This document shows positions 53,609 through 64,000 of a stretch of DNA of 64,000 nt, piece after piece. Position numbers and translations under genes: made by a program. A model generated the notes under the pieces. It did no database searches and was not told where the DNA came from. It worked only from the letters and a program-made list of their open reading frames with translations. The stretch is taken from NCBI GenBank assembly GCA_964446535.1, contig CAYUOR010000002.1, forward strand, positions 43,372 to 107,371. The letters are read 5' to 3'. This stretch comes from an uncultured Candidatus Saccharibacteria bacterium (GTDB taxonomy: Bacteria > Patescibacteriota > Minisyncoccia > Phycocordibacterales > Zambryskibacteraceae). Numbering within the stretch: the stretch's first letter is position 1; every line of letters begins with the position of its first letter.

Positions 53609-54205
53609 CTATATACCTAAATTATTCACAGGCGGCATGGGCTTACCCGTTGCCTTTATTCCCGTGTGGTGCGTGGCAGACATTTGCATGATAACGTCTT
53701 TGACGTGCTCTGGGTGTGGCACCTGGTGAAATATAAACTCTCTTTCGGATGAGGCGGTTTGAACCGTAACATTGCCGAACTTAAAAAATGTTTCTATGAA
53801 CCCTCGGGTGTGGGCGTTAACATCCTGAATACGGTTTGCAGAAAGTTCTGAAACCTCACGATTAAAGAATCCGTGTTGGTCGCTATCTATGATTCTTTTA
53901 TTTGTGATAAGGACGGTCGACAGGCTATATAGCGTGATGGCGTGAAAAGCAGAGAGCCAGAGCGCCATATACCAAAGGCTAGCGACGAAAAGAAAGGCCG
54001 GAAACCAGCCACTATTTAAAATAAGAGAATAGAAAATAAGACCAACAAAAATCGGCACGAGAGCGGCAAAGCTGAGAAGCCCGAGGCGGATATAGATGGT
54101 CAGCGGGTGTCGGCGTAGAAGTGTTATTACTTCTTCACCCTCCTTTTGGCCCACGAAGGAATTTAGAGATTCAGAAAACAGCGAGAAAAATGGGTGGAGC
54201 TTCAT
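53609..54205 (-). CDS. Membrane protein with bacterial PH (bPH_2/YdbT-like) domain
   Basis: two TM helices followed by a PH-like domain (ITNKRII...ELS..RIQDV). Confidence 0.5.
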   Translation of the reverse strand: MKLHPFFSLFSESLNSFVGQKEGEEVITLLRRHPLTIYIRLGLLSFAALVPIFVGLIFYSLILNSGWFPAFLFVASLWYMALWLSAFHAITLYSLSTVLITNKRIIDSDQHGFFNREVSELSANRIQDVNAHTRGFIETFFKFGNVTVQTASSEREFIFHQVPHPEHVKDVIMQMSATHHTGIKATGKPMPPVNNLGI

Positions 54206-54441
54206 GGCAGGAGTTTTGTAATATCAATCTTTAGAAACATTGCAACCGCAATACCGGAAAAGATAAGCGAACCTCCGAGGAAAATTGCTGCAAATTTCTT
54301 CGGCTGGGTGCCGATGCCGAAGCGTGTCAGGTGGTAGAGGATAATAAAGGCGAATATCCAGTAGACGAAAAAAACTCCAACAATCAGGACATTAAAGATA
54401 ATCCCGAGGAACTGCATAAATTGTTTCCTTAATTCTAGCAC
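54202..54441 (-). CDS. Small 2-TM membrane protein (hypothetical)
   Basis: 79 aa; overlaps the upstream gene stop by 4 nt. Confidence 0.35.
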   Translation of the reverse strand: MLELRKQFMQFLGIIFNVLIVGVFFVYWIFAFIILYHLTRFGIGTQPKKFAAIFLGGSLIFSGIAVAMFLKIDITKLLP

Positions 54442-54452
54442 TAAAAAGAAAA

Positions 54453-54473
54453 GCCCCGATGTAACATCGGGGC
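54453..54473 (-). terminator. Terminator hairpin GCCCCGATGTAACATCGGGGC (U-run on minus strand)
   Basis: same hairpin family as 48974 and 53320. Confidence 0.6.
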
Positions 54474-54492
54474 CTGAACATTGAACTTGTGA

Positions 54493-54876
54493 TTATTGAC
54501 CTCTACCCTTGAATGGCAGTGGTCGCAAGAGGCCGGCGTCGTCGAGGTCCATGAGCTCCTGGTTGCGCCGGAGCTTCTTGCCTTCCGCTTCGTACTCGGC
54601 TTCTTCCGAAAAGAGCGGCGTACCGCCACGAGGCGGCGTTTGAGCAGCTCTCCGCTTGAGAATCTTCCTCTCCGCCACATCGAGGTGGCTCGCCACGAGC
54701 ATGGCGACGACGGCAAGAAAGATTCCGAGAACGACGAGTTCTCCGGCGAGCGCCTTCTTCTCCGTGAAGATGATGAGGTAGAAGCTTATTGACAGAAAGA
54801 GGATACCGATGATACTCGAGACGCCGAGGACCATGCGCATGAAGCGAAAGTACGGCGTGTTCATTTCCCTGATCAC
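54493..54876 (-). CDS. Membrane protein with charged C-terminal tail (hypothetical)
   Basis: two TM helices; Arg/Glu-rich tail. Confidence 0.4.
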   Translation of the reverse strand: MIREMNTPYFRFMRMVLGVSSIIGILFLSISFYLIIFTEKKALAGELVVLGIFLAVVAMLVASHLDVAERKILKRRAAQTPPRGGTPLFSEEAEYEAEGKKLRRNQELMDLDDAGLLRPLPFKGRGQ

Positions 54877-54957
54877 AAAGACCTCCTTTTTGAGCTGAAA
54901 AAGTCTCCTGCAACTATACTATTTTAATCCCACAAAGTCAAGAGATATGAAAACTAG

Positions 54958-55031
54958 TCCGCCCGCCACGATTCGAACGTGGGACCCCCGAGGTATAAGC
55001 TCGATGCTCTAACCAGCTGAGCTACGGGCGG
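54958..55031 (-). tRNA. tRNA-Ile with anticodon TAT (UAU), C1-G72 acceptor pair
   Basis: D-arm GCTCAGCTGGTTAGAGC (Ile/Ala/Met type), anticodon stem TCGAG/CTCGG, loop CTTATAC, T-arm CCACG-TTCGAAT-CGTGG, acceptor CCGCCCG/CGGGCGG. Confidence 0.65.
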
Positions 55032-55053
55032 AAAGATTTAATATATCACAGTG

Positions 55054-57198
55054 TTATTCAAAGTGAATTTTACGCTCACTAGAATCCAAGCGCTCCTTAA
55101 GTAGCGGAAATTTATTAAGCCCGGGATCAAGTTCAACAAGCCTTGTTGCTTCTGCTCGCGCCGCCTCAACCATCTTTAAATTCTTAATCGCTTCCATCCC
55201 GACATCCGAGATACCCCACTGTCTCATCCCCGCGAGCTCTCCCGCCCCGCGCTGTTTAAGGTCGTACTCGGCGAGTTCGAACCCATTTTTGGCGGAGACT
55301 AGAGCTTTCAGCCGCTCACGCGCCTTGTCTCCCCGGCTTTCGGTGAAGACGAAACAATATGCCTGGTGATTGGAGCGGATGACTCGACCGCGGAGCTGGT
55401 GGAGCTGGGCGAGACCGAAGCGCTCCGCACCTTCTATAATAATGAGCGAAGCGTTTTCTACATTGACGCCCACTTCGACGACTGAGGTGGCGACAAGGAT
55501 ATCCAATTTTTTATTTTTAAACTCCAACATTATCTTTTCTTTCTCGGCGGGCTTCATCTTGCTGTGAAGAATACCTATTTCGTACTCACCGAAGACTTCT
55601 TTTTTCAGGCGCTTCGCCTCTTCCTTTACGGATTTGGCAAGGACCGCAAGTTCTTTTGTCGGGTCGGGTTCGTCTATACGCGGGCAGATAACGTAGAGCT
55701 GCCGTCCAGCTTTTAATTCTTCACGTACTTTCTCGTATGCTTGCAGCCGCTTATCCGGAGCGACAACTTCCGTGATAATTTTTTTCCTACCTTCCGGCAT
55801 CTCGTCTATGAGAGAGAGGTCGAGGTCGCCGTAGAGTGTGAGGGCGAGGGTTCTCGGGATGGGAGTCGCGGTCATAGAGAGCAGGTGCGGAGTAAGCTCG
55901 TTTTTTGTCACAAGCTTTTGCCTTTGCGCCGTGCCGAAGCGGTGCTGTTCGTCAACGATGACAAATGCCAGGTGTTTAAACTTAACCGACTTTTGAATTA
56001 GCGCGTGAGTGCCGATAAGGACCGAGATTTCGCCCGAGGCTACCCACTTAAGAAGCTGGGCTCGAGATATATCTGTGGCGCCATCGGGATTAATCTTCGA
56101 TGGGAATTTTTTACAACCACTTCCTGTGATGAGAGCAATATTTATCGGCAAGTGGGAGAAGTATTTTATAAACGAGTCAAAGTGCTGTTGAGCGAGTATT
56201 TCTGTCGGTGCCATGTAGGCCGACTGGAGGGTGCCTGACTGCGCAGGCAGGCCGAATTCATTAAGAGGGCGGGAGGTGGTGACGGCGTAGACCGCAGTAG
56301 CGGCAACAGCGGTCTTGCCCGAGCCGACGTCCCCTTCGAGAAGGCGCGACATCGGGTGTCCGCGGCGGAAATCGAGAAGGACGGTTTCTATGGCGCGTCT
56401 CTGTGCTGCTGTTGCCTTGAAAGGAAATCTCGAAATAAAAGTTTCTACATCCTCAGGTTTCTTGTCTATGACGAAGGCGGCGCGCTCTTTAAACTCGTGC
56501 CTAAATTTTTGTCTCTCAAGCTGGATGAAAAATATTTCTTCAAAGGCGAAGCGCTTGCGCGCCGCTTCGGCGTGCTCGAGCCTCTTCGGTGCGTGGATGT
56601 ATATGAGCGAAGTGCGCAGGTCGGGGAGATTGTACTTTTTCAAAATCTCGTCTGGCAGGGGGTCAACAAGGGGGTCCAGGACCCTGCTTGCGAAAGCCGT
56701 CTGCACTTTATGATAAAGCCAGTTGGAAGTAACACCGCGAGTCTCGGGGTAAACGGGGTAGAGAGAGTGCGCGGCAGTTTTTGTAAAAAGGTCGGGAGCT
56801 GTTTCGATTTTCGGATTTGAAAAGTAGAGAGAGCCGTTCCGCTCGGAAACCTTGCCCTCAACACGGACGCGGGAATTCTCGGCAAGCATTTTTGCCAAGT
56901 AGGCTTGGTAGAACCAGACGATTTTTATTTTGCCCGTAGCATCTTCGACAAAGCCCTCTGCCATGGGAATTTTTTTCCTGAAAGCTCTGCTCGTTTTTAG
57001 TTTGCTGATTTGTCCGAAGACGACAGCTGTTTCACCCTTCTTCAGATCGACAATATTGGCAATCTCCGCCGAGTCGCCATAGTAGCGGGGGAAGTAGTAG
57101 AGAAGGTCACGAACCGTCTCGAGCCCTAGGCGCTTGAGGGCGGAGAGCTGCCTCGGCAGTATTCGGAAGACGTCGGAGAGTTTATCACTCGGATGCAT
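55054..57198 (-). CDS. recG: ATP-dependent DNA helicase RecG
   Basis: wedge domain plus SF2 helicase motifs GDVGSGKT, DEQHRFG, and a TRG-type motif in the C-terminus. Confidence 0.9.
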   Translation of the reverse strand: MHPSDKLSDVFRILPRQLSALKRLGLETVRDLLYYFPRYYGDSAEIANIVDLKKGETAVVFGQISKLKTSRAFRKKIPMAEGFVEDATGKIKIVWFYQAYLAKMLAENSRVRVEGKVSERNGSLYFSNPKIETAPDLFTKTAAHSLYPVYPETRGVTSNWLYHKVQTAFASRVLDPLVDPLPDEILKKYNLPDLRTSLIYIHAPKRLEHAEAARKRFAFEEIFFIQLERQKFRHEFKERAAFVIDKKPEDVETFISRFPFKATAAQRRAIETVLLDFRRGHPMSRLLEGDVGSGKTAVAATAVYAVTTSRPLNEFGLPAQSGTLQSAYMAPTEILAQQHFDSFIKYFSHLPINIALITGSGCKKFPSKINPDGATDISRAQLLKWVASGEISVLIGTHALIQKSVKFKHLAFVIVDEQHRFGTAQRQKLVTKNELTPHLLSMTATPIPRTLALTLYGDLDLSLIDEMPEGRKKIITEVVAPDKRLQAYEKVREELKAGRQLYVICPRIDEPDPTKELAVLAKSVKEEAKRLKKEVFGEYEIGILHSKMKPAEKEKIMLEFKNKKLDILVATSVVEVGVNVENASLIIIEGAERFGLAQLHQLRGRVIRSNHQAYCFVFTESRGDKARERLKALVSAKNGFELAEYDLKQRGAGELAGMRQWGISDVGMEAIKNLKMVEAARAEATRLVELDPGLNKFPLLKERLDSSERKIHFE

Positions 57199-57202
57199 CT
57201 CT

Positions 57203-57886
57203 CTATCTTACCGCTTTGTCGGAGACAATCTTTCCGTCGTCGAGTGTCACGATTCTCTGTGTCAAGGAGCTGTATTCCTCTTCGTGAGTCACCATGATGA
57301 TAGTCTGACCCTGTTTATGCACCTCTTGGAACAGTTTCATAATAGAGCGGCTGGATTCGTTGTCTAAGTTCGCCGTCGGCTCGTCGGCAAAAAGCACTTT
57401 CGGCCCGTGCGCCAAGGCTCTTGCGATAGAGGTGCGCTGTTGCTCTCCGCCCGAGAGCTGGCTTGGCAAATTTTCCAGGCGATGTCCGAGACCGACACGT
57501 TCCAGAGAGACTTTAGATTTTTCGTAAGCATCGTGTTTTGAAAGACCCTGCATCATGAGAGGCACGGCAACGTTTTCCATAGCAGTCAGGTCTGGGAGCA
57601 GGGCGTAATCCTGGAAGACGTAGCCGAGCTCCGATAAGCGGAGATTCGTCTTTTCTTCGGCGGTCATGTTGTGCGTATCTTTGCCGAAGAGGTACACCTC
57701 GCCCGAAGTCGGATCGTCGAGAAGAGACATCTGGTACATGAAAGTAGATTTGCCCGCACCCGACCTGCCCATGATAGAGATCCACTCTCCCTCTTCGGCG
57801 ACGAAGTCTATACCCTTAAGGACGCGCGTCTCCTTACTGCCGTCGATGAAAGTTTTTATTAAGTTTTCTACTTTGATTAAAGGCAT
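57203..57886 (-). CDS. ABC transporter ATP-binding protein (MacB/LolD/FtsE-like)
   Basis: Walker A GRSGAGKST, signature LSGGEQQR, Walker B LFADEPT. Confidence 0.85.
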   Translation of the reverse strand: MPLIKVENLIKTFIDGSKETRVLKGIDFVAEEGEWISIMGRSGAGKSTFMYQMSLLDDPTSGEVYLFGKDTHNMTAEEKTNLRLSELGYVFQDYALLPDLTAMENVAVPLMMQGLSKHDAYEKSKVSLERVGLGHRLENLPSQLSGGEQQRTSIARALAHGPKVLFADEPTANLDNESSRSIMKLFQEVHKQGQTIIMVTHEEEYSSLTQRIVTLDDGKIVSDKAVR

Positions 57887-57889
57887 GTT

Positions 57890-59137
57890 TTAGTTTCTCC
57901 CAAGGATGGAATCAAGAGTATTTTTCCTGACGATCATCCTTGCGGGGATGTAGCCCGCGATGACTGTTGTAATCATAAGTATGGCGATTTTCACCGCGGT
58001 ACTGTCTAAGGGCGCGACGAGAATGCCGTCGGAGAAGGGGAAGTCTATGGGGTGCGTGGCGATAAACGGCTCGAGAAAGGCATATAGGAGAACGAGCCCG
58101 ATGCCGGAGCCGACCGCGGCGTAGAAAAAGGACTGGAAGACGTAGGAGATTTCTATGGTTCTTCCCGAAACACCGATACCCTTAAGGATGCCGATAAACT
58201 TTCTTCTCGTTATGGCGTTGATGAAGATGACGATAAAGATGGTGATGGAGGCGACGACGAGGCCTATGGAGCTCATCAGGTTTCCGAGGAGGGCGAAAGT
58301 ATCTTTGATATCCTCCAGGAATTTCGGCTGAGCCTCCTCAAAGGTTTGGACTCTCGCATATTCGCCGACACCACTTCTCAAGAGCGCCTCTTTAAAGAAA
58401 ATGGGATCGGCACCAGGCTTCAGACGGACAGAAATTTCGCCGACGTTGTAGTCGTTCCTTCCTATAAGGTCGCGAAACTGGGTGTCAACGAAATAGACTC
58501 GATAGGAGAGTTCATCCACCTTGGATTTCACAATACCCTTGACTGTCACCTCGCGCTTTATGTTGCCGAGAGTTATACGCACCTTGTCTCCGACTTTGAC
58601 GTTATCAAGTGTCGGGAAGCTTGCCGTCTCGACGGGGAAGTATTCTGTAAGAAGGTATGACCCTAAGAGGACCTGGTCGTAGTCTGTCGGTAGAAGATAC
58701 TCGCCGTCTATAACGAAGCGCGAGATCCCTGTCAGATCTTCCTCGGCGACGGGGTTTATGCCGACGAAGGGTGCCCCTGCTCGGTCAATCTCTTCGTCCT
58801 TAGTCGCTTCCTTGTAACCGGCTTCAACATTGCCGGAAGAGAGGTAGCGCGCCGAGACGGCGAGAGTCTCGGGCATGGATTTAATAATATTTAAAACTTG
58901 CGGGCTCTGTTCTATATAATCTTTCTTCTCGAGGGTGGAGATAAGGATGTCGGAGGTGTAGAGATTTTTATTCGCCTGGACCGCGCCTTCGATAAGCCCG
59001 ACAAGAATCCCCGAGACCACAACCAGGTTAAGAAACGTCAGGGTCATGACGAAGATGATTAACCCCGTCGTCCACTTACTGGCGCGGCGCATCTGGCGTA
59101 GAGCGAGGAAAAAGCCTAGGCGGATAAACTGCGGCAT
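57890..59137 (-). CDS. ABC transporter permease (FtsX/MacB-type, 4 TM with large extracytoplasmic loop)
   Basis: FtsX-like C-terminal TM bundle; adjacent to the ATPase. Confidence 0.8.
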   Translation of the reverse strand: MPQFIRLGFFLALRQMRRASKWTTGLIIFVMTLTFLNLVVVSGILVGLIEGAVQANKNLYTSDILISTLEKKDYIEQSPQVLNIIKSMPETLAVSARYLSSGNVEAGYKEATKDEEIDRAGAPFVGINPVAEEDLTGISRFVIDGEYLLPTDYDQVLLGSYLLTEYFPVETASFPTLDNVKVGDKVRITLGNIKREVTVKGIVKSKVDELSYRVYFVDTQFRDLIGRNDYNVGEISVRLKPGADPIFFKEALLRSGVGEYARVQTFEEAQPKFLEDIKDTFALLGNLMSSIGLVVASITIFIVIFINAITRRKFIGILKGIGVSGRTIEISYVFQSFFYAAVGSGIGLVLLYAFLEPFIATHPIDFPFSDGILVAPLDSTAVKIAILMITTVIAGYIPARMIVRKNTLDSILGRN

Positions 59138-60595
59138 CTACTTAGCGCTAGGGTTGGTAATGATTTGTGATCCCTCGGGAAGCGTAGAGAGAAGCTCAAC
59201 CGAGCCGGAGGAATCACGTTCACCGACCGTTACTGGAGTTTTCACCTCCTTGCCGTCCGAGCCCAGTATATAGACGAAGGATTCCTCTCCTTCCACGACG
59301 ACTGTTCTCTCGGGGATAAGGAAGACCGAAGGCTTTCTAGAAGTTTCAATTTCTATATTGGCGGTCATACCGGAGCGCACTAACTCAGACTGATTTGTCA
59401 GGGCGAGGCGGACTTTGTATGTAGAGACACCGTCGCGGATAGTCTCGGCTGGGTCTATGTGTATGACACGAGCTTGGAACTTCTCTTTCTCGCCGTAGGC
59501 GTCAAGTGTGACAGAAGCAGTATCACCGACCTTTACTCCCGAGATAGAAACTTCTGGCACAAAGGATTCTATCTCGAGTTCGCGGCTGATGACCGAGATT
59601 ACTTCGGCATTCGCGGCGACAGTCTGCCCGACCTTCGCGTCCTGCTTCGAGACGACACCGTCTATGGGAGAAGAGAGAGAAGTTTTGGAGAGCTGTGAGC
59701 GAGCATTCGCGAGAGCGGCACGAGCGGCCTCAACCCGTGCGACCTGTACAGGCACATCGAGTAAAAGGTTTTTGAGATTTTCTTCCGAAGAGATGAGACT
59801 CTGGGTTGCGGTGTTTAGAGCGGCCTCGGCTGCGGCCATAGTTGTTTTGTATCCGTCTATCGTAGTCTGCGAGAGCCAAGCCGATTCTTCAAAAAGATTT
59901 GCCGCCTGGGAAACTTCCGAGACGTAGCGGGCGACTGTGGCCAGGTTTTCTCGAGACTTGGAGAGCTTTTCTTCTGTGTAAGTTGTGAGTGAGAGACCGG
60001 TTGTAATATTTCTCCAGTTCTCGAAGAGGACATCCATCTTACGTCGAGTACTGTTTATAGAGTCGCGGAGATTCACATCCTTTGAGAGGTCGCCGTTTAT
60101 CTCGGGGAAGCCCGAGTGGATATTGATAAAGAGCTGATCGGCTTTCTTATAAACAGCGTCGTCGGCGACGGCGCGGGCGTTGAGGATACTCTGGATCACA
60201 GCGCGCTTCGAGTTCGTAATCTGCGCTTCGAAGGTGCCTGCACCCTCGAGCTTATCGAGTCCGGCGAGAGCAAGATTAAGTTCGGCTTCCGCCTTCAGCA
60301 CCTCGGCCGAGATAGTACTTGCATCCAGGCGCGCGAGGAGCGAGCCCCTGTTTACAACAGAGCCGACCTCGCGTGAGACCGAGGCGACAGTACCCGAGAC
60401 CTCGAAGCCGAGATTTACACTCTCTTTCGGAATCACCTTGCCCGAAATTTTGACAGTCCTGACGAGGTCACCGAGAACGGGAGAGACGACCGTTTTCTCG
60501 CCGTTACCTCCCGCCTTGAAGATGAAAATGCCGCCGACTAAGACTACTAGGGCGACAATTAGAAAAACCTTTCTTTGTTTAACAAATGCAAACAT
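59138..60595 (-). CDS. HlyD/MacA-family periplasmic adaptor (long coiled-coil hairpin)
   Basis: N-terminal TM helix, biotinyl/lipoyl-like half-domains flanking a long coiled-coil; adjacent to the MacB-like pair. Confidence 0.75.
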   Translation of the reverse strand: MFAFVKQRKVFLIVALVVLVGGIFIFKAGGNGEKTVVSPVLGDLVRTVKISGKVIPKESVNLGFEVSGTVASVSREVGSVVNRGSLLARLDASTISAEVLKAEAELNLALAGLDKLEGAGTFEAQITNSKRAVIQSILNARAVADDAVYKKADQLFINIHSGFPEINGDLSKDVNLRDSINSTRRKMDVLFENWRNITTGLSLTTYTEEKLSKSRENLATVARYVSEVSQAANLFEESAWLSQTTIDGYKTTMAAAEAALNTATQSLISSEENLKNLLLDVPVQVARVEAARAALANARSQLSKTSLSSPIDGVVSKQDAKVGQTVAANAEVISVISRELEIESFVPEVSISGVKVGDTASVTLDAYGEKEKFQARVIHIDPAETIRDGVSTYKVRLALTNQSELVRSGMTANIEIETSRKPSVFLIPERTVVVEGEESFVYILGSDGKEVKTPVTVGERDSSGSVELLSTLPEGSQIITNPSAK

Positions 60596-60631
60596 TGTAA
60601 GAACAATTTATAACATTTTTCCCATCCATTA

Positions 60632-60892
60632 TCAATTCTTTATTTCAAAGACTTTTCTTTTCGACGTGGCACCCGAGACGAGACGCACTTCGGAGCGCGA
60701 GACGCCGAAGTGTCGAGCTAAGAGTTTCACAATCGCCTCGTTTGCCCGACCCTCTTTCGGCGCCTCCTTTACCGAGACGGTGTAGTACTCCTCCGGGTCC
60801 TTTATGAGCTTCAAGGGCGGGGGAGCGACCTTGTCTTCCTTTGCGCCCGCCTTCGCCCTAACAAAAATTTTCATTGTCTTATAGAGTAGCAT
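60632..60892 (-). CDS. DUF167 (YggU/UPF0235) family protein
   Basis: KIFVRAKAGAKEDKV...AKEGRANEAIVKLLARHFGVSRSEVRLVSGATSRRK. Confidence 0.7.
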   Translation of the reverse strand: MLLYKTMKIFVRAKAGAKEDKVAPPPLKLIKDPEEYYTVSVKEAPKEGRANEAIVKLLARHFGVSRSEVRLVSGATSKRKVFEIKN

Positions 60893-60920
60893 TTTTCGGA
60901 ATTATCAATTTTTAATAGCT

Positions 60921-60997
60921 AGCTCATTAACCTATGAAATACTATGAAATTTTGCAAAAAGCTTGACTGGAATATAGCACATATGATAACCTATGAA
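60921..60997 (+). promoter_or_regulatory. Direct repeats AACCTATGAAATA (x2) / CTATGAAAT (x3) upstream of hsdM; candidate operator
   Basis: copies at 60921-60933 (followed by tandem CTATGAAAT at 60934) and 60985-60997; TTGACT -35-like hexamer at 60963. Confidence 0.3.
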
Positions 60998-60999
60998 AT

Positions 61000-62703
61000 A
61001 TGAAGAAAACATCAAACGAGAAGGCACTACTCTCAATCAGCGAAGTTTCAAGCATTTTTGGTATTCACCAAGACACGCTTCGTAATTGGGAGAAAAAAGG
61101 ACTTATTACTCCACTCCGTGTTGGTCCACGAAAAGATCGAAAGTACAAGCCGGAAGACATTGAGCGTATTGCGAATGATAAAAGTATTTTCAAGGGGCTT
61201 GATGAACCTCTCGATGATGGAAAAATGAATCTCACCCAACTCAAGCAATTCCTTTGGAGAAGTGCCGATATTTTGCGTGGAAAGATAGACAGTTCTGATT
61301 ACAAAAAATATATATTTGGACTCCTTTTCTACAAACGCATCAGTGATGTGTGGGACGAAGAATATAAAAAAGTTCTTGAGGAATATCATGACGAAGAAAT
61401 TGCTCGCGCAGATCACAATCACCGTTTCCAAGTTCCGAAAGATTGCCGATGGGAAGTAATACAAAAACAAGCAGAGGGTATCGGGCAGAAACTCAATGAA
61501 ATTTTTGATAAACTCACAAACGCAAACAGTCCCAAGCTCGACAAGATTTTTGATGATCTAGATTTTGCCAACAAGGATAAATTTCCAAATACTACTCTAC
61601 AAAATTTAATAAACCATTTTTCAAAACATAATTTTGGAGACAACTACATCAGCTCTGATCTTCTTGGGGATGCATACGAATATCTCATTGAGCAATTTGC
61701 GGCGGATGCGGGTAAAAAAGGCGGAGAATTTTACACTCCGCGTGAGGTTGAGCGGGTAATAATAAACATTTTAAAACCTCACGAGAAAGACCATATCTAC
61801 GATATGGCAGTTGGCTCTGGCGGTTTCCTACTCGAGGCGTATCACTATCTGCGAGAACAAGCTGGAGAAAAGAAAGCTCGCTCACTCTACCTTTACGGGC
61901 AAGAAATAAACATTGGTACATACGCAATTGCAAAAATTAACATGTTTCTCCACGGGCTTGATAGTGCAGACATTCAGCGCGGAGATACTCTTGCCGATCC
62001 AAAATTTTTGAATCCTGACGGATCGCTAAAAACCTATGATATCTGTGTTGCAAATCCGCCCTACTCCATTAGTGAATGGGAAGATCAGATTTTTGCCGCG
62101 AATAAACACGGAATTCTTGATGGTTATGAAATGCCTCCGGCAAAAAAAGCCGATTACGCCTTTGTGCTCCACATGGTGAAGTCCATGAATAAAAACGGTC
62201 GTGCGGGAATTGTGCTTCCTCACGGGGTACTTTTCCGAGGTGGCGCTGAAGGACGAATCCGTGAGCAACTGATAAAAAATGATCTCATAGAGACCGTCAT
62301 CGCTCTCCCCGCAAAGCTTTTCTATGGCACAGGTATTCCGGCGGCGATCGTGATATTTAACAAGAACAAACCAGAAGCTCACAAGAATAAAATTCTAATT
62401 ATAGACGCGGAAAAAGATTTTGAAGAAGGTAAAAACCAGAATCGCCTTCGCAAAAAAGATATTGAAAAAATTGTTTCGGCTTTTGAGAGTTACCGCGATG
62501 TTGAGAAATATGCTCGCATCGTGGGTATCAAAGAGTTGGAAGAAAATGAGTTCAATCTCAATGTCCGTCGCTATGTAGAAAATGGTGATGAGGAGGAAGT
62601 TGTAGATGTGAAAACAGTTTGGAGTGAATTGAAAGAAATTGAGAAGGAGCGCGAAGTGATTGATAAGAAGGCCGTCAATTATTTAAAAGAATTAAAATAT
62701 TAA
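61000..62703 (+). CDS. hsdM: Type I restriction-modification N6-adenine DNA methyltransferase subunit HsdM with N-terminal MerR/excisionase-type HTH domain
   Basis: HTH LLSISEVSSIFGIHQDTLRNWEKKGLITP; HsdM_N LKQFLWRSADILRG; the AdoMet motif follows within 61800-61830 (frame uncertain); catalytic NPPYS. Confidence 0.85.
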   Translation: MKKTSNEKALLSISEVSSIFGIHQDTLRNWEKKGLITPLRVGPRKDRKYKPEDIERIANDKSIFKGLDEPLDDGKMNLTQLKQFLWRSADILRGKIDSSDYKKYIFGLLFYKRISDVWDEEYKKVLEEYHDEEIARADHNHRFQVPKDCRWEVIQKQAEGIGQKLNEIFDKLTNANSPKLDKIFDDLDFANKDKFPNTTLQNLINHFSKHNFGDNYISSDLLGDAYEYLIEQFAADAGKKGGEFYTPREVERVIINILKPHEKDHIYDMAVGSGGFLLEAYHYLREQAGEKKARSLYLYGQEINIGTYAIAKINMFLHGLDSADIQRGDTLADPKFLNPDGSLKTYDICVANPPYSISEWEDQIFAANKHGILDGYEMPPAKKADYAFVLHMVKSMNKNGRAGIVLPHGVLFRGGAEGRIREQLIKNDLIETVIALPAKLFYGTGIPAAIVIFNKNKPEAHKNKILIIDAEKDFEEGKNQNRLRKKDIEKIVSAFESYRDVEKYARIVGIKELEENEFNLNVRRYVENGDEEEVVDVKTVWSELKEIEKEREVIDKKAVNYLKELKY

Positions 62704-62707
62704 ATGT

Positions 62708-63253
62708 ATGGAGAAATATATAATTTTTGAAGGAAATATTGACCAACAGGCAACACTTAGACTTGTTAACGCAATTCAAAATGCAATAAACCAAGCACCT
62801 CAGGCAACAAAGGTAACTATAATATTTTCCTCTCTTGGGGGAAGTATATATGATGGTTTCCTCTTGGCTTCTTTTATCCAAAACTCAAGAGTTCCGATTG
62901 CTATTCACGCTGTAAATCATATTGATTCAATTGCAAATGTTGTCTATTTATCTGTAAAAGAAAGAACAGCAGAATCTCATACGAAGTTTTATATGCATGG
63001 CGCCTCAACACAAGGAAATTTCGACGAGAAAGCACTTAAAGAACAACTTTCTTCGATTAAGACCAATAATAGTCGCATAGCTCACTTTGTGACTGCAAAT
63101 TCGGGCATTAGTCTCAAGAAAGTGAGATCAATGATGGAAAGCGGAACAACGATTTCAGCTCAAGAAGCTTTAAAGTATAAAATTGTTCAAAAAATAATGC
63201 ATCGTGAAGTTCCTCCAGATGCAATTAGAGAAGAAATAATTTATGTCAATTAA
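62708..63253 (+). CDS. ClpP-like (S14 family fold) serine peptidase paralog embedded in the Type I R-M operon
   Basis: ClpP-like order of motifs: FSSLGGSIYDG (compare INSPGG.V..G), candidate Ser in HIDSIA, candidate His in YMHGAS, C-terminal ISAQEALKYKIVQKIM (compare SA.EA..YGL.D.I). Starts 4 nt after the hsdM stop, and the hsdS start overlaps its end by 11 nt. Confidence 0.55.
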   Translation: MEKYIIFEGNIDQQATLRLVNAIQNAINQAPQATKVTIIFSSLGGSIYDGFLLASFIQNSRVPIAIHAVNHIDSIANVVYLSVKERTAESHTKFYMHGASTQGNFDEKALKEQLSSIKTNNSRIAHFVTANSGISLKKVRSMMESGTTISAQEALKYKIVQKIMHREVPPDAIREEIIYVN

Positions 63254-64000
63254 ATCTTCACAACAAAATATTCCCAGTGGATGGCAAGAAACCAAACTTC
63301 TTGATTGTCTTCGCATTCCATCAAAGCTTTCGGGTATAAAACTTTCTGAATATGAGAAAGAGGGTGATTTTCCTGTTTTTGATCAGGGGCAAGATTATAT
63401 TAGTGGATTTTCATCAAACAAAGACTTAGTGGTTAAAGATGTCCCTGCAATACTTTTTGGTGACCACACTCGTATTGTGAAATATATAAAAAGTCCATTT
63501 GTTGCAGGAGCCGACGGAACCAAAATATTTTGGGCAAAAGATGGTTTTGATCCAACATTTCTTTATTATTTGGTTTTGAGTCAAAAAATTCCCAATACTG
63601 GATATAACCGACATTTCAAATTTTTCAAAGATATAAAAGTAATAATTCCTGAATCTAAAACCGAACAACAAAAAATTGCAGAGATTTTGGGGACGGTGGA
63701 TGAGGATATTGCGAAAACAAAGGAAGTAATTCAAGCGACAGAAAAGCTTAAGCGAGGGCTTATGCAACAGCTCTTTACTCGCGGGATTGGGCATACAAAA
63801 TTTAAGGAAACAAAAATCGGACAGATTCCTGAGGACTGGGAATTAGTGAAGATGAAAAATATTTGTACAGTAAGACAAGGTCTTCAAATTGCAATTTCTC
63901 AAAGATTTTCAGAGTATAAAGAAGGTAGATACAAATATATTACTTTGAAAAGCATAAAAGAGAATATTTATGATTATATTGAATCACCTAAACAGTCAGT
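63243..64000 (+). CDS. hsdS: Type I restriction-modification specificity subunit HsdS (partial, runs off window end)
   Basis: target-recognition-domain hallmarks: N-terminal LP.GW...L, DYISGFSSNKDLV (Methylase_S); central conserved helix KIAEILG..D..I..T...I.....LK.GLMQQLFTRG; start of a second TRD. Confidence 0.75.
   Translation, partial: MSIKSSQQNIPSGWQETKLLDCLRIPSKLSGIKLSEYEKEGDFPVFDQGQDYISGFSSNKDLVVKDVPAILFGDHTRIVKYIKSPFVAGADGTKIFWAKDGFDPTFLYYLVLSQKIPNTGYNRHFKFFKDIKVIIPESKTEQQKIAEILGTVDEDIAKTKEVIQATEKLKRGLMQQLFTRGIGHTKFKETKIGQIPEDWELVKMKNICTVRQGLQIAISQRFSEYKEGRYKYITLKSIKENIYDYIESPKQS

Follow-up and report, generated by a model that had tools for sequence, protein, structure and literature searches.

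Transcriptional self-control by a DNA methyltransferase (MTase) has been described for Type II restriction-modification (RM) systems, where M.SsoII, M.Ecl18kI and M.EcoRII combine an N-terminal helix-turn-helix (HTH) domain with an operator in their own promoter region and repress their own expression (PMC12707154, PMC3978073, PMC2760811). A 2025 review gives MTase-HTH fusions for Type II only, finds "surprisingly little information" about how transcription of Type I systems is controlled, and mentions a C-protein gene at the Mycoplasma gallisepticum hsd locus, which is of Type I (PMC12707154). The first widespread dedicated Type I repressor, RptR, was reported only in 2025; it acts on Type I RM defence islands of Gammaproteobacteria and uses direct repeats over the −10 box (Nucleic Acids Research 2025, PMC12255303). 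A third point of reference is BldC, a MerR-like protein without coiled coil or effector domain that binds direct repeats head-to-tail on one face of the DNA helix (PMC5859096). Here we analyzed a 64,000-nucleotide stretch of DNA from an uncultured Candidatus Saccharibacteria bacterium (assembly GCA_964446535.1, contig CAYUOR010000002.1, positions 43,372–107,371), hereafter the window, in which the Type I methyltransferase gene hsdM (61000–62703; all features named below lie on the + strand) encodes a protein with an additional N-terminal MerR-type HTH and is preceded by two tandem direct repeats. A first-pass annotation of this DNA had pointed to the HTH and to operator-like repeats upstream, had noted that such fusions are known for Type II systems, which agrees with the review, and had suggested that the operon is autoregulated by its own methyltransferase.

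The open reading frame (ORF) encodes 567 amino acids, and its ATG at 61000 is the earliest possible start because an in-frame TGA lies at 60994–60996. Translation, Pfam, NCBIfam and PADLOC all identified the product as the N6-adenine methyltransferase subunit of a Type I system, with a PADLOC match to MTase_I (E = 1.8e-144) and an NCBIfam match to the hsdM equivalog TIGR00497 (292.4 bits versus a cut-off of 242.75) whose alignment begins only at residue 80. Pfam placed the HsdM_N domain at residues 81–207 (PF12161, E = 2e-27; 61240–61620) and the catalytic N6_Mtase domain at residues 218–533 (PF02384, E = 3.4e-108; 61651–62598). The glycine-rich S-adenosylmethionine-binding motif DMAVGSGGFL (residues 268–277) and the catalytic NPPY (residues 352–355, within NPPYS 352–356) were both invariant in 26 homologs. 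Ahead of this core, residues 12–58 matched Pfam MerR_1 (E = 2.7e-11; 43.8 bits versus a cut-off of 21.6), with the alignment confined to profile positions 2–47 of 69, and residues 12–40 matched MerR (PF00376; 33.2 bits versus 28.2). As HsdM_N starts at residue 81 and TIGR00497 aligns from residue 80, the HTH is a true N-terminal addition to a complete HsdM; judged by these alignments, a misread HsdM_N helix is excluded and the domain is additional. We regard it as practically certain that the window protein is a genuine HsdM carrying an extra MerR-family HTH at its amino terminus. The first-pass annotation had thus read the ORF, its quoted peptide (LLSISEVSSIFGIHQDTLRNWEKKGLITPLRVGPRKDRKYKPEDIERI, residues 10–57), the NPPYS motif and the succession of HsdM_N and N6-adenine core correctly. 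Its assignment to a MerR/excisionase-type HTH is borne out by MerR_1, while the HTH_17 profile that it named (PF12728, residues 10–59) is only marginal, at 25.4 bits with the whole protein and 29.0 bits with residues 1–75 alone against a cut-off of 27; the NCBIfam excisionase model TIGR01764 ("excise") reached 16.2 bits versus 28.8.

The HTH spans residues 10–59 (61027–61176), as delimited by MerR_1, structure modelling, Foldseek, conservation and codon-level selection. An AlphaFold2 model of the domain alone gave predicted local distance difference test (pLDDT) values of 83–87 for these residues, followed by a low-confidence tail, and showed a helix at residues 13–20, a second, recognition helix at residues 24–33 containing DTLRNW, a β-hairpin wing at residues 39–49 and a closing helix at residues 51–59. 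The HTH was also the sole confident part of a full-length AlphaFold model, in which the linker stayed below 50. Foldseek comparison with the PDB returned the BldC–DNA complexes 6ama and 6amk as best matches, with a root-mean-square deviation of 1.9–2.9 Å over 51–54 residues and a template modelling score, normalised to the target, of 0.66–0.75, followed by CarH in second place and then GlnR/TnrA, SoxR and the excisionase Xis of mycobacteriophage Pukovnik. By sequence, the closest solved relatives were BrlR (E = 1e-4), TnrA, CarH, SoxR and BldC (E = 0.018), and the NCBIfam BldC model NF033787 (HTH_BldC) scored 16.4–20.7 bits against a cut-off of 77, which is below membership. There is no room for the coiled-coil dimerisation helix and effector domain of MerR proteins, as the HTH ends at residue 59 and is followed by a linker of about 20 residues and HsdM_N.

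Across 49 full-length family members the HTH showed a mean identity of 72%, with D25-T-L-R-N-W30 of the second helix and G42, R44, D46, R47 and Y49 of the wing invariant. The linker (residues 60–78; 61177–61233) is variable, with a mean pairwise identity of 42% and an 11-residue indel that divides the family into long- and short-linker subgroups (short form in 20 of 49). Over 84 homologous segments the HTH codons gave a ratio of nonsynonymous to synonymous polymorphism (pN/pS) of 0.25, with pS near saturation; the HTH is therefore translated and under purifying selection.

Methyltransferases of this architecture are widespread. The 120 best database matches were 84–93% identical to the window protein and about 569 residues long, and all combined MerR, HsdM_N and N6_Mtase, while their sources, which include Paceibacterota/Parcubacteria, Uhrbacteria, Magasanikbacteria and Taylorbacteria, annotate them merely as "type I restriction-modification system subunit M". 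Altogether over 120 protein clusters contained the fusion, as did 57 genomic loci that belong to many lineages of the Patescibacteria, or Candidate Phyla Radiation (CPR). A genome scan using one genome per GTDB species yielded 75 loci, 55 of them with fusion genes of 64–91% identity over a wide CPR/Patescibacteria range that adds Adler-, Colwell-, Moran-, Roizman-, Gottesman-, Davies-, Shapiro-, Gribaldo-, Falkow- and Niyogibacteria. At one further locus (L042) the contig end cuts the gene before the HTH, and 18 distant loci align only from residue ~56–81 (L056–L058, L060–L071 and L074 at 36–46% identity; L075 as a 60-residue fragment match). The most informative relative without an HTH is L045 (Levyibacteriota), which is 73% identical from residue 75 and begins there. 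Among 1.84 billion protein representatives at 50% identity, the fusion clade is a single one and the sole alignment over residues 1–75; below it the score drops from 1156 to 493 bits, and the next 149 HsdM proteins align from residue ~75. The extension is thus extra and unusual for a Type I M subunit, as the first-pass annotation had held.

Two groups of further fusion candidates were rejected. Ten of these HsdM proteins that have N-terminal extensions of another kind contained no MerR HTH when scanned; one carried a SAP domain (22 bits) and one a sub-threshold HTH_27. A tblastn search of plasmids with residues 1–215 returned 333 records that covered at least 80% of the query; some 330 of these were IncF plasmids of Klebsiella aligned over residues 4–212. 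These encode a plain 507-residue HsdM that starts 174 nt downstream of the match start, and the in-frame stretch upstream contains three stop codons and adjoins an IS1 remnant, identifying a spurious extension of the high-scoring segment pair.

We then turned to the DNA upstream of hsdM. The distal predicted operator, TTAACCTATGAAATACTATGAAATTT (60927–60952), is a tandem direct repeat with half-sites CCTATGA (60931–60937) and CTATGA (60942–60947) in a 10-nt period, scored 36.9 bits with the position weight matrix (PWM) described below and has an equivalent in nearly all fusion loci. It ends 10 nt 5′ of a putative −35 hexamer TTGACT (60963–60968), read from the sequence and conserved in place as TTGACA/TTGACT among 20 window-like loci (1.18 bits per position). 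The proximal predicted operator, AGCACATATGATAACCTATGAAATAT (60976–61001; 31.9 bits), has half-sites CATATGA (60980–60986) and CCTATGA (60990–60996), again in a 10-nt period, and overlaps the putative −10 element, the predicted transcription start and the ATG. Sequence and conservation together suggest an extended −10 element TGATAACCT (60984–60992), whose hexamer TAACCT (60987–60992) follows the −35 at an 18-nt spacer and sits within the proximal operator. It ends 7 nt before the ATG, so that transcription beginning about 7 nt beyond the −10 would have the A of the ATG as its first nucleotide. No Shine-Dalgarno sequence was found before hsdM (60984–61002), and because of this and of the predicted start on the A of the ATG, the hsdM mRNA is probably leaderless. 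Very short leaders were seen in other subgroups, too.

The pattern CCTATGA-N5-TATGA occurs in the whole window only at 60931–60947 (exact) and 60980–60996 (one mismatch), against 0.23 occurrences expected by chance, so that the operator-like repeats noticed earlier are real. They can be refined to direct repeats with a 10-nt period, an arrangement that fits the mode of BldC, Xis and CarH and not the palindromic mode of MerR.

Anchoring the related loci on the HTH and comparing their upstream DNA revealed a conserved module, with unrelated DNA 5′ of its distal site (0.23 bits per position). The motif is a tandem direct repeat with the consensus tTAACCTATGAwAA(C/G)cTATGAAAttt and the 10-bp unit consensus AACCTATGAA. 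The strict pattern CCTATGA-N(4-5)-TATGA matched 44 times in 16.5 kb of hsdM-upstream DNA, covering 34 of the 57 loci, and only 4 times on both strands of the remaining 1.54 Mb. These four outlying matches belong to three loci first scored as motif-less (L016, L018 and L035) and lie 450–800 nt upstream of hsdM; L016 contains the complete repeat-TTGACA-repeat module followed by an inserted leader of ~370 nt. A PWM built from 49 strict sites found at least one site in the 900 nt ahead of hsdM in 58 of 59 fusion loci, no match elsewhere in those loci (1.53 Mb) and none in 22 HTH-less loci (419 kb). Consistently, the HTH-less L045 has an ordinary TTGACA...TATAAT promoter without repeats. The half-site period was 10 nt in all 49 strict sites and never 8, 9, 11, 12 or 13.

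A reverse search of metagenome and viral collections with ACCTATGAWAANNTATGAA alone led back to the same genes: an HTH-hsdM followed in the correct orientation in 25 of 124 metagenome and 1 of 44 viral instances, and the gene starts 20–120 nt downstream, with a single exception at 758 nt. Behind the remaining matches no other HTH homolog recurs, and they are consistent with chance, given the size of the database and an AT-rich pattern of 16 bases. As a side observation, in L016 (7566–7997) and L018 (~1745–2130) the module lies ~370–435 nt upstream of an hsdM that starts with GTG, and the leader holds a small, very basic ORF of ~54 residues (MAKTKTSAYGKQKQKIVPVRSYKRNGKRIKPHRR...).

The position of the motif varies by subgroup. 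Window-like loci have two sites, the proximal one at −21 relative to the ATG; a second subgroup (L029) has a single site abutting the −35 from upstream (TTGACT-N17-TAGAAT); and a third has a single site just 3′ of the TATAAT box, over the start codon. That the motif persists while the promoter layout shifts speaks most strongly for selection acting on the motif as such. In the window-like subgroup the entire promoter module of ~70 nt is conserved, including, moderately, the spacers, and we discarded the ungapped information-content profile of this subgroup as proof of half-site selection. Because of this spacer conservation, the argument for the motif rests on its cross-subgroup retention and on the negative controls. 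From these data we consider it likely that the HTH binds the repeats. The autoregulation proposed by the first-pass annotation receives strong support, of a comparative kind, from the co-occurrence of repeat and HTH in the fusion loci and the absence of the repeat elsewhere; binding and the sign of regulation are what we infer from them.

In its logic the locus comes closest to M.SsoII, M.Ecl18kI and M.EcoRII, in which the HTH is likewise fused N-terminally via a flexible linker to a modification enzyme. These Type II enzymes, however, are monomers that modify cytosine at C5, and their operator is a palindrome located between R and M promoters that diverge or overlap, whereas the present protein is an M subunit of the N6-adenine type in a Type I system of several subunits, with a MerR/BldC-like HTH, a direct repeat of 10-nt period and co-directional genes. 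Within Type I, the closest precedent is RptR, which shares with the present locus a dedicated cassette-encoded hsd regulator, short direct repeats overlapping the −10, a co-conserved site and embedded variable cargo. By its published description RptR is a separate 9-kDa (~79 residues) four-helix dimer without PDB homolog that recognizes the 6-bp palindrome TAGCTA (PMC12255303), and this sets it apart from a MerR-fold winged HTH fused to HsdM, a CCTATGA motif and a CPR distribution. By fold and type of site the closest precedent is BldC, which differs in being a free protein of 68 residues that recognizes an AT-rich unit, AATTnnnn(C), and controls a developmental regulon, whereas the HTH described here is tethered to ~490 further residues and has apparently a single target, its own promoter. 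C proteins resemble the proposed system in the autogenous control of RM operons from paired operators (PMC12707154), but are stand-alone HTH dimers of the Xre/lambda-cI type that are usually encoded 5′ of the R gene. The classical MerR regulators (MerR, CueR, SoxR, BmrR, BrlR) belong to the same winged-HTH sequence family; unlike them, the present domain lacks an antiparallel coiled coil and an effector domain, and in place of a palindrome within a 19–20-bp spacer there are direct repeats 5′ of the −35 and over the −10 and start, the spacer being 18 nt long. CarH, reportedly described by Jost et al. in 2015, is said to have MerR-type winged HTHs that are flexibly tethered to an oligomeric body and bind tandem direct repeats over a promoter. 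It differs in being a B12-dependent, light-sensing transcription factor and not an enzyme subunit.

Taken together, we propose a regulatory Type I methyltransferase whose HTH-bound repeats exert negative feedback on the hsd operon, a reading that we hold, as a whole, with moderate confidence. The HTH, which a flexible linker of ~20 residues connects to an HsdM that is normal in all other respects, would recognize the 10-bp units, in the simplest case with a single HTH on each unit and all of them on the same face of the helix. The units stand in head-to-tail pairs on the hsd promoter, one pair just 5′ of the putative −35 and one over the putative extended −10, the predicted start and the ATG. 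Type I methyltransferases are M2S1 complexes, and the two tethered HTHs of one complex could match one tandem site. With rising HsdM the proximal site would become occupied, RNA polymerase would be excluded, and transcription of hsdM and of the co-directional downstream genes would be shut off; the cassette would thus bring along its own negative feedback, independent of the host. Control of its own operon by HsdM is very probable on the sequence evidence, and for the net effect we lean towards auto-repression. The direct arrangement of the presumed sites in a 10-nt period would fit cooperative head-to-tail binding. A further possibility, which we offer tentatively and rather doubt, is that M2S1 senses its own concentration through its two HTHs on the two-site operator, the distal site helping and the proximal one blocking the leaderless promoter. 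Such a two-site read-out would take care of homeostasis and of timing during establishment, for which E. coli-type systems rely on post-translational control via ClpXP, its built-in control would let a near-identical cassette spread across CPR phyla with few regulators of their own, and it would represent the first enzyme-tethered direct-repeat binder of the BldC type and the first autoregulatory Type I methyltransferase.

Several observations weigh against negative feedback through HTH-bound repeats. Because the PWM was derived from sites in the very upstream regions that it then scored, its coverage of the 34 strict loci is partly circular; the background, the other loci and the reverse search are unaffected. 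Shared ancestry accounts for part of the signal in the window-like subgroup. Some loci have the second half-site inverted (CCTATGATAACATAGG), leaving the binding geometry unsettled; two substitutions in the near-symmetric core switch between the direct and the inverted form. A generic sigma-70 scan did not call the hsdM promoter, because its −10 is non-canonical, and the promoter hexamers are a reading of sequence and conservation. The full-length AlphaFold model, built on a shallow alignment (84–93% identity) and with a mean pLDDT of 38, was unusable outside the HTH and was rejected as a source for the HTH positions in M2S1. Finally, the subgroup whose sole site abuts the −35 from upstream has it in a position compatible with activation.

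This last point leads to the alternative that survives best, although we consider it unlikely: an activator or a dual activator-repressor switch in the manner of the Type II C-proteins, operating through the same HTH and sites. Here, the promoter would be a weak one (18-nt spacer, TAACCT), to which HsdM on the stronger distal site (~−60) would draw RNA polymerase or hold it there; once HsdM is abundant, occupancy of the weaker proximal site would cause repression. The difference in PWM score, 36.9 bits for the distal and 31.9 bits for the proximal site, would suit such a switch, as would the placement of the distal site like a class I activator site, the non-canonical −10 and the sole site of the L029 subgroup just 5′ of the −35; moreover, C-protein operators behave in this way (PMC12707154) and classical MerR proteins activate promoters with suboptimal spacers (PMC5859096). 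An obligate activator encoded behind only its own promoter would, however, struggle to start in a naive host, and the sole site of another subgroup, downstream of the −10 and over the start codon, has a purely repressive geometry.

We deem it improbable that the HTH is a general DNA-affinity or enzyme-modulating module, with the repeat bound by another host factor or being mere promoter sequence. The HTH might then aid the loading of the methyltransferase on DNA or sense an anti-restriction protein, and the N-terminal region of HsdM is indeed known to tune methylation behaviour (PMC12707154). Yet the repeat occurs only where the HTH is present and is absent in the close relative lacking it, a shared host factor is unlikely because the cassette resides in many different CPR hosts, and the invariant recognition helix together with the invariant half-site core argues for a cognate pair. 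Marginally less probable still is an excisionase-like directionality or architectural domain, for which the repeats would be the end or attachment site of a mobile hsd cassette. The weak HTH_17/excisionase profile matches and the phage Xis among the fold matches agree with it, as do the location of the repeats exactly at the left homology boundary and GC drop, the 85–93% identity of the cassette across CPR lineages, implying mobility, and a 48%-identical stand-alone paralog near a serine recombinase. No recombinase, however, is conserved beside the cassette, and none occurs in the L001 neighbourhood, where Fic and TspO genes form the flanks; no repeat was found at the right end or elsewhere in the loci (no PWM match in 1.53 Mb); the repeats always have the same orientation, interleaved with the −35 and −10, and where they lie depends on the promoter instead of on a set end of the cassette; and an excision factor fused to an abundant enzyme subunit has no known precedent. 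A fusion artefact, i.e. a small regulator gene joined to hsdM by an assembly error or a missed stop, has a negligible chance and is effectively refuted by the many independent intact copies: despite an in-frame TGA in the linker of L080 and a fragmented L076, the frame is continuous in the window, in 49 full-length loci of independent assemblies and in more than 120 protein clusters.

An autoregulatory HsdM would be a second, structurally unrelated solution to Type I control beside RptR, with the regulator built into the methyltransferase. It would also show that the way in which BldC works, through a MerR fold that lacks the coiled coil and acts on direct repeats, is open to a domain tethered to an enzyme. 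The hsd cassette, highly mobile and with variable cargo embedded in it, would then be a defence unit that regulates itself, and this in CPR/Patescibacteria, which are hard to culture and appear to depend heavily on RM defence. The regulator-operator pair is clearly defined and hence directly testable, and as a compact unit it could serve as a portable autoregulatory part. Full-text searches of the accessible literature gave no description of an HTH-HsdM fusion, a scope that leaves earlier annotation of the architecture in REBASE or InterPro possible; for Type I systems, a methyltransferase that is fused to an HTH and probably regulates its own operon has apparently not been described before.

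Downstream of hsdM, the window contains a ClpP-like (head-maturation-protease-like) cargo gene encoding 181 residues (62708–63253; Pfam CLP_protease, E = 1.1e-14) and the 5′ part of the specificity subunit gene hsdS (63243–64000), which runs past the window end and matches the HsdS regions of 40 loci at 31–80% identity. The cargo protein scored 50.8 bits, below the cut-off, with the NCBIfam model Clp_rel_HeadMat ("head maturation protease, ClpP-related"), had no homolog in 75 related loci, and its gene has the lowest GC content of the region (33–36%); it is a member of the operon outside the conserved core and may be phage-derived. It gave no PADLOC match, and its identity as an established defence gene was dropped. 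A ClpP-like cargo is curious here, as ClpXP degrades HsdR when restriction is alleviated in E. coli. The hsdR gene itself would lie beyond the window end: in about 40 relatives a same-strand HsdR of 971 residues follows (62–96% identity; domains HSDR_N, SWI2_SNF2 and T1R_D3). The gene order in relatives, on one strand, is hsdM, variable cargo (0–3.4 kb), hsdS, cargo, hsdR and a YgjP-like metallopeptidase gene, with HsdS being hypervariable (28–59% identity).

The YgjP-like (DUF45) metallopeptidase gene stands directly 3′ of hsdR in L001 (16414–16962) and in 31 other loci (46–93% identity), i.e. in nearly every sufficiently long locus. An M48 peptidase gene is associated with hsd islands in the RptR paper (PMC12255303). 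Across L001–L073 the hsdM–hsdS and hsdS–hsdR slots hold differing cargo of 0–3.4 kb, in L001 (9715–13404) comprising Trypco2-like, HEPN/AbiU2-like and Bro-N genes and a 205-residue protein without assignment. These slots are a hotspot for embedded accessory and defence genes, like DarTG2 in the RptR island.

Along the profile of positions 54000–64000 the GC content falls at ~60,900 from 51–55% in host genes (ABC permease, HlyD-like, YggU/DUF167) to 33–44% in the hsd cassette. This drop indicates that the cassette is foreign to its host, and the operator-promoter module is its left edge. The proteins of the cassette are 85–93% identical in metagenome-assembled genomes (MAGs) of many CPR phyla, indicating recent and frequent horizontal transfer.

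Some further members and relatives of the family were observed. L080 (1059–2765) has an in-frame TGA in the linker that separates a 69-residue HTH ORF from a 492-residue HsdM, with both operators intact. The TGA may stem from a nonsense mutation or a sequencing error, or may encode glycine if code 25 (Gracilibacteria/SR1-type) applies, and this single case was not counted as evidence for a stand-alone regulator; L076 is a fragmented, frameshifted pseudogene. The stand-alone paralog of the HTH (P0279, 59 residues, L077–L079) keeps TLRNW, is divergent to genes of no assigned function and lies ~2.5 kb from a large serine recombinase, probably on a mobile element; no CCTATGA tandem was found in L077–L079. 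On a contig classified as viral (L219; IMGVR_UViG_3300008095_000854, 16.4 kb) the operator is followed by an HTH-hsdM of 72% identity, and this may be a CPR phage or prophage bearing the cassette or a misclassified contig. Lastly, L005, L010, L016, L025, L026, L032, L036, L038, L042 and L049 include several MAGs from binchicken co-assemblies titled "uncultured Gammaproteobacteria", "Pseudomonadales", "Bdellovibrionales" or "archaeon", which carry the CPR-type gene at 70–90% identity, in one case on a contig of 914 kb; the titles of these records appear to be taxonomic mislabels.

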